A stretch of 7,991 nucleotides of DNA from a virus (lineage: Duplodnaviria; Heunggongvirae; Uroviricota; Caudoviricetes): IMG/VR virus record IMGVR_UViG_2698536369_000013, positions 1-7,991 of that record, one strand, 5' to 3'. The notes below the pieces were generated by a model that saw nothing but the letters and a program-made list of their open reading frames with translations, made no database searches and was not told the DNA's origin. Both the position numbers and the translations under genes were made by a program. Every line of letters starts with the position of its first letter. Position 1 is the first letter of the stretch. Positions 3,249 to 7,991 of the stretch are shown piece after piece.

Positions 3249-3620
3249 ATTCTGAACCCTAAAAAAAGAAACACGGACACTGATAATGCCCGTGTGGCAA
3301 TGCCATGTAAGTTAGCGATGAATATGGCGCAAAAAAAGCGCGGCCGTCGGATTAACGCCGCGGGACAAAGTCCATGAAGAATCATAAGTATCTGTCTCCT
3401 TCAGGAGACGAGTTGATATTACTAAGCTTTAAAAATGGTTTAAATCCTCAGATTAACCTTAATTTCAGGTAAGTCTTATTTCATTTCTTTGCGCCACGCC
3501 CGGCGCACATCAAAAACCACAGAGCCTTTCAGGGGTGAGCTTACGGGATGGTCAGTGTGACTTTCTCTGTGGGCTGGTCACCCCCGGGCGCAGGCTCACC
3601 CACTAAAAGGAAAAGTCACG

Positions 3621-4046
3621 ATGTTTGGTATTTTCAAAAAGAAAACCCGCAAGGCCATTACCGAAGTGAAGAAGATGGAGAACCGCGACGCAGTGGAGGC
3701 GACCGTCTGGGGCGCGTATTCCATTGCATATGCTGACGACACCTGTGACGCGAAAGAAGTCGCGGTACTGGAGAAAACCATTGCAGCACTTCCTGCCTTT
3801 GCGCCGTTCTCGGGTGAGATTGCACAAATGAGTGCAAATATCCGCGCCCGTTATGAAGCGTCACCGCGTTCTGCCAATGCCGAAGCCCTTCGTCAGCTGG
3901 CTGATGTTGCCGGTACTGATGATGCAGTTAACGTGCTGTGTCTGTGTCTGGATATTGCTGACCAGGACGGCATCGGTCCTGATGAAGAAGTGCAGCTCAA
4001 GAAAATTGCACAGGCGTTGCAGTTGCCGCTGGAGCAGTACCTGTGA
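3621..4046 (+). CDS. TerB-like (tellurite-resistance TerB family) protein, 141 aa
   Basis: ATG 3621 with AAGGA about 9 nt upstream; stop TGA 4044-4046. N-terminus MFGIFKKK resembles the TerB N-terminus, and two motifs of the form A-x-A-D-[DG]...E...L (AYADDTCDAKEVAVLEKTIAAL and LDIADQDGIGPDEEVQLKKIAQAL) are characteristic of the TerB fold. Confidence 0.7.
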   Translation: MFGIFKKKTRKAITEVKKMENRDAVEATVWGAYSIAYADDTCDAKEVAVLEKTIAALPAFAPFSGEIAQMSANIRARYEASPRSANAEALRQLADVAGTDDAVNVLCLCLDIADQDGIGPDEEVQLKKIAQALQLPLEQYL

Positions 4047-4195
4047 AAAGTGCGCGCCTTGTGCTGGCTGCCATCCTGCTGTTTCTGGTAGTGGTGGTGG
4101 ATTTCACCGGACGGCTGATGTCGGTGCTGGCAGATGGTGTGCTGGTGGCGATGGCGCTGGTCGTGCTCCGGCCTTTACTGCGTAAATCTGAATAA
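4043..4195 (+). CDS. Small hydrophobic protein (50 aa, about 2 predicted TM helices), GTG start overlapping the TerB-like stop
   Basis: GTG at 4043 overlaps the TGA of the upstream gene (ctGTGAaa). Translation MKSARLVLAAILLFLVVVVDFTGRLMSVLADGVLVAMALVVLRPLLRKSE, stop TAA 4193-4195. Too short for the ORF track; found by manual translation. Followed by two hairpins. Confidence 0.4.
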   Translation: MKSARLVLAAILLFLVVVVDFTGRLMSVLADGVLVAMALVVLRPLLRKSE

Positions 4196-4242
4196 CACCA
4201 CACAAAAGGCATCTGCGGGTGCCTTTGATGGGGTGTTTTTAT

Positions 4243-4264
4243 GGGCCGTTGGTGGCCCTTTTTT
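4243..4264 (+). terminator. Rho-independent terminator between the TerB-like insert and the lysis cassette
   Basis: GGGCC (4243-4247) / GGCCC (4254-4258) stem, 6-nt loop, then T6 (4259-4264). Preceded by a second hairpin AAAGGCA...TGCCTTT at 4205-4225. Confidence 0.55.
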
Positions 4265-4282
4265 ATTTACAGGAGAAAAAGT

Positions 4283-4675
4283 ATGTCTGAACCCTTATCC
4301 GGTTCCGGCACGGCTGCGGCGCTCGGCGGGGCGACGGTATTCGGGCTGTTTACCGGAACGGATTTCGGGATTGTGTTTGGTGCGTTCGCCGGGGCGTTGT
4401 TTGTGGCAACGATGCCGCAGAAGATTTCAGCCTGGCGTGTGGCGGCACATTTTCTGGTGTCGTTCATTGTTGGTGTACTGGGGGCGCGTGTACTGTCAGC
4501 CTGGATTGCATCAAAAACAGGTTATGACGGTACATCTGCGGATGCACTGTGTGCGGTGCTGGTGGCGGTGGTGTCGGTGAAGATTCTGTCGTTCATCCAC
4601 CAGCAGGATATCGCATCACTGGTGTCCGGCCTGTTCTCGCGCCTGCGGGGCGGAGGAGGCGGCAATGTTAAGTAA
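4283..4675 (+). CDS. Putative holin / lysis membrane protein (130 aa, 3-4 predicted TM segments, Gly-rich)
   Basis: Strong SD AGGAG (4271-4275) then ATG 4283; stop TAA 4673-4675. Hydrophobic helices with GxxxG-like spacing and a charged C-terminal tail. Sits immediately upstream of the endolysin and is translationally coupled to the next gene. Confidence 0.6.
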   Translation: MSEPLSGSGTAAALGGATVFGLFTGTDFGIVFGAFAGALFVATMPQKISAWRVAAHFLVSFIVGVLGARVLSAWIASKTGYDGTSADALCAVLVAVVSVKILSFIHQQDIASLVSGLFSRLRGGGGGNVK

Positions 4676-4940
4676 CCTTCCCGGATTGCTGAATGTGGCG
4701 TTATGCACGGTTATCGTGCTGACGCTCTTTTTTTATCGTCGCCGTGATTCCAGACATAAACCGCTGATGTCATGGCTGGCCTGGTTGCTGATGCTGCTGT
4801 ATGCCTTTGCGCCCCTCAGCTATCTGTGTGGTCGCCCGTTAGCAACGGGCTGGCTGGAAGTGTTTTTTAATTTGTTGTTCTGCGTGCTGGTAATACGCGC
4901 ACGCGGGAACGTCACAAAAATCTTTCCATTGTTGAGGTGA
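4665..4940 (+). CDS. Second small membrane protein of the lysis cassette (91 aa, 2-3 TM; holin or antiholin-like)
   Basis: ATG 4665 overlaps the upstream stop (ATGTTAAGTAA); stop TGA 4938-4940 lies 2 nt before the endolysin ATG. Strongly hydrophobic (LLNVALCTVIVLTLFFY..., WLAWLLMLLYAF...). Confidence 0.55.
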   Translation: MLSNLPGLLNVALCTVIVLTLFFYRRRDSRHKPLMSWLAWLLMLLYAFAPLSYLCGRPLATGWLEVFFNLLFCVLVIRARGNVTKIFPLLR

Positions 4941-4942
4941 AT

Positions 4943-5320
4943 ATGCCGGGTAAATTCAGATTCAGCCGTCGGAGCGAGAAAAATCTGGAGGGCGTCAAAC
5001 CACAACTGGTTGCTGTCGTTCGCCGTGCCCTTGAGCTGACGGAAGTTGATTTCGGTATTACGGAAGGCCTGCGCAGTAAGTATCGCCAGAAACAGCTGGT
5101 CGCGGAAGGGAAAAGTCAGACCATGAACAGCCGCCATCTGACCGGTGATGCGGTGGATGTTGTGGCCTACGTTGGCAACCAGGTGTCATGGGACTGGCCT
5201 CTGTACGAGAAAATCGCGCAGGCATTTAAGCAGGCTGCCGCAGAGCTGGGAACTGCCATCGAATGGGGCGGGGACTGGAAAACACTGAAAGACGGGCCTC
5301 ACTTCCAATTGAAACGCTGA
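4943..5320 (+). CDS. Endolysin, peptidase M15 family (L-alanyl-D-glutamate / D-Ala-D-Ala type zinc peptidase), 125 aa
   Basis: SD GAGGTG (4934-4939) then ATG 4943; stop TGA 5318-5320. Motifs typical of M15 phage endolysins: SRHLTGDAVDV (His/Asp metal ligands) and a C-terminal GGDW...DGPHFQL block. Confidence 0.8.
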   Translation: MPGKFRFSRRSEKNLEGVKPQLVAVVRRALELTEVDFGITEGLRSKYRQKQLVAEGKSQTMNSRHLTGDAVDVVAYVGNQVSWDWPLYEKIAQAFKQAAAELGTAIEWGGDWKTLKDGPHFQLKR

Positions 5321-5334
5321 TAGCCGGGCGAGTT

Positions 5335-5517
5335 ATGAGCCGAAAACACTGGACACACAGAATGCCGCGAGCGGCGGCAAAATGGGCACTGGTAGCGATA
5401 CTGGTGCCTTTTTTATTGGTGGGGTGCGTCAGCCTGGATAAGGCGCGCCAGCTTTTCGATACGGCTTCTCAGGTCTGTGAAATTGTCGACGGTGTTCGAC
5501 AGTGTCTGCAGAGCTGA
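5335..5517 (+). CDS. Small lipoprotein (60 aa; possible o-spanin-like or accessory lysis lipoprotein)
   Basis: Signal peptide with lipobox: KWALVAILVPFLLVGC (Cys after LVG). Lies immediately after the endolysin. Start at ATG 5335 or 5362 is ambiguous; no C-terminal TM segment; not Pro-rich like classical Rz1. Confidence 0.5.
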   Translation: MSRKHWTHRMPRAAAKWALVAILVPFLLVGCVSLDKARQLFDTASQVCEIVDGVRQCLQS

Positions 5518-6669: not shown

Positions 6670-6990
6670 TGAGAAATAAAAAACCGGCCACAGGGAGCAG
6701 CTACACAGAACCGGCCGGCGAAGACCGCCAATACCACCCATGCTTTGATGCAACATACTAATGACAATAGCCGCTATTGATGTAAATGCAATGTTATGCA
6801 TCGACGAAAATAAAAAACCGGCAGGGGAAATCCATTGAAGATTTGCCGGTGGCAAAAGAGGGCCATGTTTTTAACCTTAGTCGCAGAGTTACGGAGTGCA
6901 ACTACGAATGCTGCCGGTATATGGCTGAATGGCGTTTCAATGATGTACGTCATCTTATCTGTAAACGTTAATGACAAACGCTCTCATTTG

Positions 6991-7186
6991 TGCGGGTCCT
7001 TCCGGTGGGGTGGCCTGCCACGGGGCGGAAGGCGCGCGGGTTTTCGCTATTTATGAAAATTTTCCGGGGAAAATCATGTCGGTACTTCTCGAACATAACT
7101 ATTTGTTTTTTCTAATATCGAATCCGTAAAAGGTCCGACATGAAAACGCCTAAAAAAGTCATTTTCGGGCACTTTCATGTCGGACC
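6991..7186. other. cos: Phage cohesive-end site (cosQ-cosN-cosB) of a lambda-like packaging system
   Basis: About 190 bp upstream of Nu1, as in lambda. CGGGTCCTTCCGGTG (6993-7007) resembles lambda cosQ. Putative cosN is GGGCGGAAGGCG (7023-7034) against lambda GGGCGGCGACCT. The block CGCGGGTTTTCGCTATTTATGAAAATTTTCCGG (7035-7067) matches the start of lambda cosB as I recall it. Three R-like repeats follow. Confidence 0.75.
7073..7186. repeat. Three copies of a CATGTCGG-core repeat in + / - / + orientation (candidate terminase small-subunit binding sites)
   Basis: ATCATGTCGGTAC (7073-7085, +), GGTCCGACATGAAA (7132-7145, reverse orientation), TTTCATGTCGGACC (7173-7186, +). Copies 2 and 3 form a perfect 14-bp inverted repeat. 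An AT-rich spacer (7086-7131) between copies 1 and 2 sits where lambda has its IHF site. Confidence 0.6.
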
Positions 7187-7210
7187 CTGTGTTTGTTGTG
7201 AGACTGTTTC

Positions 7211-7756
7211 ATGAAGGTTAATAAAAAGAAGCTTGCCGAAATTTTCAACGTGGATCCGCGAACGATTGAACGCTGGCAGTCTCAGGGACTCCCTTGCGTC
7301 TCCGGAGGTGGTAAGGGCGTTGAATCTGTATTTGATACCTCCATGGCAATTCAGTGGTATGCGCAGAGGGAGGCTGATATCGAAAATGAAAAACTCCGTA
7401 AAGAGGTTGAGGATTACAGGGCTGCCAGTGAGGCAGATCTCCAGCCTGGGACTATTGAGTACGAACGCCATCGACTTACGCGTGCGCAGGCCGACGCACA
7501 GGAGCTGAAGAATGCCAGAGACTCCGCAGAAGTGGTGGAAACCGCATTCTGTACTTTCGTGCTGTCACGGATCGCAGGTGAAATTGCCAGTATTCTTGAC
7601 GGGATCCCTCTCTCGGTACAGCGGCGTTTTCCGGAACTGGAAAACCGACATGTTGATTTCCTGAAACGGGATATCATCAAAGCCATGAACAAAGCAGCCG
7701 CGCTGGATGAACTGATACCGGGGTTGCTGAGTGAATATATCGAACAGTCAGGTTAA
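7211..7756 (+). CDS. nu1: Terminase small subunit, lambda Nu1-like (181 aa)
   Basis: ATG 7211, stop TAA 7754-7756. From about residue 70 onward the protein is essentially identical to lambda Nu1 as I recall it ([42 protein letters not shown]...LSEYIEQSG). The N-terminal winged-HTH region ([28 protein letters not shown]...) is clearly related but diverged. Confidence 0.95.
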
Positions 7757-7991
7757 CAGGCTGCGGCATTTTGTCCGCGCCGGGCTTCGCTCACTGTTCA
7801 GGCCGGAGCCACAGACCGCCGTTGAATGGGCGGATGCCAATTACTATCTCCCGAAAGAATCCGCATACCAGGAAGGGCGCTGGGAAACACTGCCCTTTCA
7901 GCGGGCCATCATGAATGCGATGGGCAGCGACTACATCCGTGAGGTGAATGTGGTGAAGTCTGCCCGTGTCGGTTATTCCAAAATGCTGCTG
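7731..7991 (+). CDS. A: Terminase large subunit, lambda gpA-like (5' partial, first 87 codons; continues beyond the window)
   Basis: GTG start at 7731, overlapping the Nu1 3' end by 26 nt exactly as in lambda. Translation [87 protein letters not shown] matches the lambda A N-terminus. Confidence 0.9.

Follow-up and report, generated by a model that had tools for sequence, protein, structure and literature searches.

The packaging sites closest to the one reported here are those of phages lambda and 21 and of their hybrids. Discrimination between lambda and 21 is determined by residues 20 and 24 of the small terminase subunit (TerS) together with bp 56 and 59 of R3 (Feiss et al., PMC4669245). 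In a lambda-21 hybrid the 5' half of the small-subunit gene comes from phage 21 gene 1 and the 3' half from Nu1, and this hybrid is a working 21-specific helper (PMC4669245). The 7-bp site cosQ is highly conserved (PMC4669245). According to published genetics, binding of TerS to R3 anchors terminase at cosB, and the spacing between cosN and R3 is critical. Changes at cosN positions 7-12 are tolerated with little effect, those in the left half do harm, the lambda large terminase subunit (TerL) cuts a cosN with a changed right half efficiently, and the CG dinucleotides beside the nicks are conserved, as is cosQ. Natural variants of the right half are also on record: N15 and phiD326 (bp 9 and 12), Gifsy-1 (bp 8, 9 and 11), and mEp213 and LLS, which share the natural cosN variant GGGCGGCGCGCT. 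Vahanian et al. 2017 (Virology 509:140) is reportedly a dedicated survey of natural cosN variation. Both the cosB/Nu1 swap and right-half variation of cosN have therefore to be counted as already described, and the comparison below concerns a locus in which the two occur side by side.

Layout of the cos region

The window, that is, the whole stretch of phage DNA that we analysed (7,991 nucleotides), was read directly from 6700 to 7991, and positions 6985-7215 were aligned with lambda, phage 21, IdasGreatGrand and PhiR46_1. Judged from this alignment, positions 6994-7188 are a complex lambda-like cos site (cosQ-cosN-cosB), from which the virion ends can be predicted. The features of the region, with the basis of each assignment, are:

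6994..7000, + strand: cosQ (GGGTCCT), packaging-termination element of 7 bp; exact match and alignment
7001..7020, + strand: cosQ-cosN spacer, a non-lambda haplotype, TCCGGTGGGGTGGCCTGCCA versus TTCCGGTGATCCGACAGGTTA in lambda; alignment
7021..7036, no strand assigned: cosN, 16-bp nicking site CG-GGGCGGAAGGCG-CG; register from alignment to lambda and phage 21
7035..7067, + strand: conserved stretch between cosN and cosB, CGCGGGTTTTCGCTATTTATGAAAATTTTCCGG, 33 bases identical to lambda; alignment
7072..7087, + strand: cosB R3, predicted TerS-binding site of phage-21 type, AATCATGTCGGTACTT, cos bp 50-65; 15/16 versus the annotated phage 21 R3
7096..7108, - strand: I1, probable IHF bending site between R3 and R2, AAACAAATAGTTA; phage 21 I1 position
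7130..7145, - strand: cosB R2, in the opposite orientation to R3 and R1, TTTCATGTCGGACCTT, cos bp 108-123; 16/16 versus phage 21 R2
7173..7188, + strand: cosB R1, TTTCATGTCGGACCCT, cos bp 151-166; 14/16 versus phage 21 R1
7211..7756, + strand: Nu1, small terminase subunit (TerS), 181 aa, a 21/lambda chimera; open reading frame, Pfam Phage_Nu1, E = 2.6e-90
7731..7991, + strand: 5' end of gene A, large terminase subunit (TerL, gpA) of lambda type, running off the window; Pfam GpA_ATPase

In the lambda cosN register the 12-mer at 7023-7034, the predicted 12-nt 5' overhang, is GGGCGGAAGGCG, against GGGCGGCGACCT in lambda. The right half reads AAGGCG in the window and CGACCT in lambda, so that positions 7, 8, 9, 10 and 12 differ (five of the six right-half positions; 7/12 identical overall). 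The left half GGGCGG and the CG dinucleotide beside each nick (7021-7036) are as in lambda. The window thus does not carry a 12-nt overhang identical to the classical lambda cohesive end GGGCGGCGACCT, and the two-fold symmetry of its cosN extends over 8/16 positions, versus 10/16 in lambda. The nick positions are placed by homology; normal nicking would be expected to leave a 5'-GGGCGGAAGGCG overhang. The predicted nick does not coincide with the start or end of any IMG/VR contig.

The distance from cosQ to the predicted top-strand nick is 22 nt, versus 23 nt in lambda, because one T fewer follows cosQ. The spacer haplotype of the window recurs in IMG/VR with the right halves AAGGCG, CAGGCG, AGACCT and GAGCGT. 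On the other side of cosN, the phage 21 record M81255.1 has an IHF I2 site annotated at the place that matches 7035..7067.

A first-pass annotation of this DNA had described lambda-like flanks around a cosN with five of six right-half positions changed, and had suggested a possibly distinct cohesive-end sequence. In the alignment, both the lambda reference sequence it used and its register proved right; the flanks are indeed lambda-like (7035-7067 identical to lambda, cosQ GGGTCCT at 6994-7000), the five differences stand, and the predicted 12-mer, GGGCGGAAGGCG as opposed to GGGCGGCGACCT, would give an end distinct from that of lambda. That annotation had likewise placed three core repeats in + / - / + orientation where lambda has R3/R2/R1, and had Nu1 lambda-identical from about residue 70 behind a diverged N-terminus. 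The repeats lie in the sequence at the positions given below, and for Nu1 the boundary can now be set at residue 73, with L132I as the exception.

The recognition module and its terminase

The R boxes of the window are arranged as in phage 21, where R3 occupies bp 50-65, R2 bp 107-122 and R1 bp 150-165 or 150-166, and where R2 is inverted too. At the two discriminating positions of R3, bp 56 and bp 59, the window and phage 21 both have G, and lambda has T and C. The core CATGTCGG occurs at 7075-7082 (+), 7135-7142 (-), 7176-7183 (+) and 7645-7652 (-); for the whole window this makes 4 observed versus 0.30 expected, a count of 4 being reached in 0/200 shuffles. In an inverted-repeat search R2 pairs with R3 and with R1. 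The placement of I1 matches the site annotated in both phage 21 records, and its sequence, AAACAAATAGTTA, is by eye one mismatch away from the IHF consensus WATCAANNNNTTR. By BLAST against the phage collection, the cosB stretch is 83-85% identical to phage 21 and 92.6% identical to IdasGreatGrand.

Two minor observations concern these repeats. R2 and R1 lie within a longer imperfect palindrome (7132-7186) with 25-nt arms that are 84% complementary and 5 nt apart, and the symmetry therefore reaches past the 16-bp boxes. The fourth copy of CATGTCGG, at 7645-7652 (-), lies inside the lambda-derived part of Nu1; since lambda's Nu1 has the same copy (position 4127 of our locus L215), it is probably coincidental, rather than a further R box of 21 type comparable to the remote rR2 of N15.

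Nu1 is 83% identical to lambda Nu1 overall, but unevenly so: residues 73-181 equal those of lambda except for L132I, whereas over residues 1-72 the protein departs from lambda and looks like phage 21 gp1 in the alignment. The recognition helix (residues 17-24) reads RTIERWQS as in phage 21 gp1, with E20 and S24, against RTIQNWQE in lambda. A prophage in ETEC H10407 encodes the same Nu1 (100% identity), and phage IdasGreatGrand one at 99% identity. The H10407 prophage also shares the window's cos, and its full gpA agrees with lambda gpA at 639/641 residues; for phage PhiR46_1 the figure is 638/641. As far as these alignments go, both the C-terminal domain of Nu1 (self-assembly, gpA binding) and gpA are lambda-type.

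By the same comparisons, cosB and the N-terminal domain of Nu1 are phage 21's own recognition pair and thus already known biology. The window shares with phage 21 the R boxes (15/16, 16/16 and 14/16), the position of R3 at bp 50-65, the inverted R2, a probable IHF site between R3 and R2, the TerS helix RTIERWQS with E20 and S24, and a TerS start codon at cos bp 189. It differs from phage 21 in that the C-terminal 60% of its TerS is lambda's, for which reason the protein is only 65% identical to gp1 overall. Moreover, the right half of cosN in phage 21 is the classical CGACCT, and its cosQ-cosN spacer is another haplotype. The nearest engineered counterpart is lambda-21 hy51 (PMC4669245), which likewise has the phage 21 cosB, a TerS with a 21 N-half and a lambda C-half, and lambda gpA. 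With its 21-type R boxes, R3 bp 56/59 and recognition helix next to lambda terminase parts, the window would be a natural version of the lambda-21 hybrid. Unlike hy51, this version occurs naturally, being widely distributed among E. coli prophages and also found in IdasGreatGrand; the window further adds a non-classical right half of cosN. IdasGreatGrand, an isolated phage, has the window's cosB and Nu1 and yet a classical cosN.

The co-evolved specificity swap that had been proposed for this locus consequently holds in part. The R boxes and the helix do make cosB and the Nu1 N-terminus a matched pair unlike lambda's; the pair is not new, however, being phage 21's module, and cosN lies outside it, as both cosN alleles are found with lambda-type and with 21-type cosB.

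The AAGGCG right half in other phages and prophages

We scanned IMG/VR with the pattern CGGGGCGG-N6-CGCGGKTTTTC. In the unselected scan, the 121 matches listed comprise CGACCT (113), AAGGCG (7) and CGACCG (1). Scans leaving out the classical allele found AAGGCG in 77 IMG/VR contigs, together with the rare right halves CAGGCG (4), CAGACG (3), AGACCT, TGACCT and GAGCGT (2 each), and with CTGACG, CAACCT, AAGGCT, AAGCGT and CGACCG seen once. There are a few intermediates between CGACCT and AAGGCG (CAACCT, CAGACG, CTGACG, CAGGCG), so that the two main alleles stand out as peaks of a sparse spectrum without being strictly isolated. Enough flank for scoring was present in 76 of the 77 AAGGCG contigs, which show 27 left contexts (taken as 32 nt), 13 right contexts and 40 combinations of the two. 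Every one of the 76 has an unaltered left half and flanking CG dinucleotides and retains cosQ; the distance from cosQ to the nick is 23 nt at 50 loci, 22 nt at 25 loci and 24 nt at one. By class of cosB, AAGGCG occurs at 57 lambda-type loci, 19 of the 21-type and 4 of a third type, and CGACCT is found with the same three classes. Because both alleles span the same three classes, the cosN allele assorts independently of the recognition module.

The third cosB type (e.g. GGTGCTGGTGGTGGTTTTGTTGTTCGC; IMG/VR loci L217, L218, L220, L221 and others) is an observation in its own right. The gpA linked to it is about 64-66% identical to lambda's, the level reported between the TerL proteins of lambda and N15, and its right halves include CGACCT, AAGGCG, CAGACG, CTGACG and AGACCT.

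Among complete E. coli genomes, about 35, including ETEC H10407 and E24377A, contain an exact copy of the 101 bp that surround cosN in the window, and others match the window only up to the start of cosB. An exact scan for the variant cosN in species-representative genomes gave one relevant match, in Escherichia sp. E1V33; eight other matches were set aside as chance occurrences in GC-rich genomes.

Two deposited phage genomes carry the allele as well. PhiR46_1 (PV340565, recorded host ECOR13) and YDC107_1 (CP025712) have AAGGCG with a lambda-type cosB. They share with the window the identical 12-mer GGGCGGAAGGCG, the same conserved right flank and a lambda-type gpA; they differ from it in their lambda-type cosB and Nu1, a cosQ-cosN distance of 23 nt and a lambda-like spacer. 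The isolated temperate phage PhiR70_1 (PV340577.1; ~3501-3548 of locus L214) has AGACCT and hence the end GGGCGGAGACCT, a single change at position 7. Brenes & Laub 2025 is said to be the source of the PhiR phages. In PMC13190303 they are described as a panel of temperate phages, related to lambda, that were tested by plaquing. From this description in PMC13190303 and the host field of its record we infer that PhiR46_1 is viable. In the phage collection, no isolated phage combines the window's exact left spacer with AAGGCG and a 21-type cosB. PhiR5_1 and a Stx1a-converting phage, considered as carriers of the variant, were rejected, both having the classical cosN.

To see how the terminase relates to the allele, 36 distinct gpA proteins encoded beside AAGGCG were compared with 39 beside CGACCT. 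No allele-discriminating residue was found in this comparison (best discrimination score 0.29). The gpA linked to AAGGCG is mostly 98-100% identical to lambda's, in one case 100%; another gpA lineage, at about 64% identity to lambda's, is likewise found beside AAGGCG, and it carries CGACCT too. Where enough sequence was available, gpA is full-length at 38/43 AAGGCG loci versus 40/59 CGACCT loci. With linked gpA full-length at least as often, AAGGCG gives no sign of marking decayed elements. The allele does not co-vary with cosB, Nu1 or gpA, and its co-evolution with any of them is not supported.

Set against the natural right-half variants of N15, phiD326, Gifsy-1, mEp213 and LLS, the window resembles them in that variation is confined to bp 7-12, GGGCGG and the CG dinucleotides are kept, and the terminase shows no specificity for the variant. 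It differs from them in being five positions off lambda instead of two to three, and in that AAGGCG adjoins a near-lambda gpA. A full-text search for GGGCGGAAGGCG and its reverse complement returned only unrelated plant and Streptomyces papers. The AAGGCG allele may be new and is the most diverged right half found (five differences); its rank as second commonest allele, and its position beside a near-lambda gpA, may be new as well.

Cutting of the variant site, its meaning and its neighbourhood

Taken as a whole, the data are best explained by three modules (recognition, terminase and nicking site), each assorting independently of the others among natural E. coli prophages, an explanation that we consider quite probable. 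R3 and R2, on either side of an IHF-induced bend, would be occupied by a dimer of Nu1. Since gpA and the C-terminal part of Nu1 come from lambda, a DNA-binding domain of 21 type would here anchor the lambda large subunit, as it does in laboratory lambda-21 hybrids. The cosN keeps what terminase is known to need, namely GGGCGG, both CG dinucleotides and R3 at bp 50-65, with AAGGCG as its right half. Terminase anchored at cosB would then place the bottom-strand nick, insensitive to bases 7-12. Given that insensitivity, the usual cut positions and 12-nt 5' overhangs of GGGCGGAAGGCG are to be expected. Normal nicking is likely because the window retains every needed element and only the tolerant part is altered, and the prophage of the window may still be packaged.

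Against this explanation stands the possibility, already raised in the first-pass annotation, that cosN has decayed in a defective prophage and is no longer cut to usable ends. It could appeal to the IS3-family element that abuts the late region in the window, to the IS66 insertion beside the major capsid gene of the closest complete-genome relative (H10407), to a cosQ-cosN distance one base shorter than in lambda, and to the drop in two-fold symmetry from 10/16 to 8/16. Decay, however, would scatter idiosyncratic changes, whereas here an identical 6-mer recurs in 77 IMG/VR contigs, in 40 flank combinations and with three cosB types. The left half, the CG dinucleotides and cosQ are intact wherever scored, the 22-nt spacing is common to 25 of the 76 scored AAGGCG loci, and AAGGCG-linked gpA is full-length at least as often as the classical-linked protein. 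The allele is present, moreover, in PhiR46_1, a deposited phage with a foreign recorded host. Decay has thus become very unlikely, and AAGGCG is to be regarded as a genuine natural allele that recurs widely. We think shifted nicking, in which the site functions but leaves an overhang differing from GGGCGGAAGGCG in length or register, has only a slim chance of being correct: the rare alleles GAGCGT and AAGCGT do resemble one-base register shifts of AAGGCG, and disturbed cosB anchoring is known from the literature to make nicking inaccurate, but in the window the distance from cosN to R3 (bp 50-65) is that of lambda and phage 21, and the left half and both CG dinucleotides are unchanged.

Change at five of six right-half positions, and a cluster of near variants headed by AAGGCG (CAGGCG, CAGACG, AAGGCT), might also be read as a co-evolved nuclease specificity, TerL having changed to suit a new cosN and the system being closed to lambda terminase. 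This we hold to be extremely unlikely. No gpA residue discriminates the alleles, and the linked proteins are mostly 98-100% lambda-identical, one of them fully so; the gpA of PhiR46_1 equals lambda's at 638/641 residues; the lineage at about 64% carries AAGGCG and CGACCT alike; and lambda TerL, in published genetics, cuts a right-half-changed cosN efficiently.

The independent assortment of modules has consequences mainly for annotation, where its chief value lies in the recognition of a cos of phage-21 specificity joined to a lambda terminase. About 6% of cos sites with lambda flanks, among the IMG/VR matches listed, have an end five positions off GGGCGGCGACCT with an essentially unchanged TerL, and AAGGCG sites will escape predictors of prophages or termini that search for the classical 12-mer. 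The population data also support the published view that cosB anchoring, and not sequence, places the bottom-strand nick. It is a tentative idea, and one we find rather doubtful, that AAGGCG with CAGGCG and CAGACG represents a second major cohesive-end type in E. coli lambdoid phages, served by the same terminase and acting as a barrier to gene flow. Ends of the two types should not anneal together. As they differ at 5/12 overhang bases, a chromosome with mixed ends, arising from a mixed concatemer or from tandem prophages, should fail to cyclise. If true, this would be a cheap, terminase-independent barrier between freely recombining lambdoid phages, as well as to cross-mobilisation of resident prophages, and the site would offer a natural test case of a lambda TerL that ignores nearly the whole right half of cosN.

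Some features at a distance from cos deserve mention. An IS3-family element occupies positions 1-1310 of the window (orfA 55-381, orfB 378-1268, with an ALIL frameshift pseudoknot at 336-452 in Rfam). As related prophages resemble the window only from about 1311 onwards, the element lies directly upstream of the DNA methyltransferase gene and the late region, which it may separate from the upstream genes. The H10407 prophage (locus L216; NC_017633.1, 1295934-1320034) has an IS66-family element at 18295-20910 of the locus, with the head decoration gene on one side and a shortened gene for the major capsid protein on the other, and this copy is for that reason probably defective. With an IS3-family element in the one and an IS66 element in the other, the window and H10407 prophages may be defective for unrelated reasons.

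Between the methyltransferase and lysis genes of the window are two adjacent tRNA genes (2788-2941), placed by Rfam at 2788-2860 and 2867-2938; at the same pair ARAGORN reports only a tRNA-Gly(tcc), at 2867-2941. H10407 has tRNA-Ile and tRNA-Arg at the matching place, and the tRNA cargo therefore differs between close relatives. A gene for a TerB-domain protein (3621-4046; a weak match of 26.8 bits) lies between the tRNAs and the lysis cassette, which spans 4241-5320 and comprises two holins and an M15 peptidase. An 84-aa open reading frame at 5263-5517 has no Pfam match; its lipobox-like LLVGC would fit a spanin.
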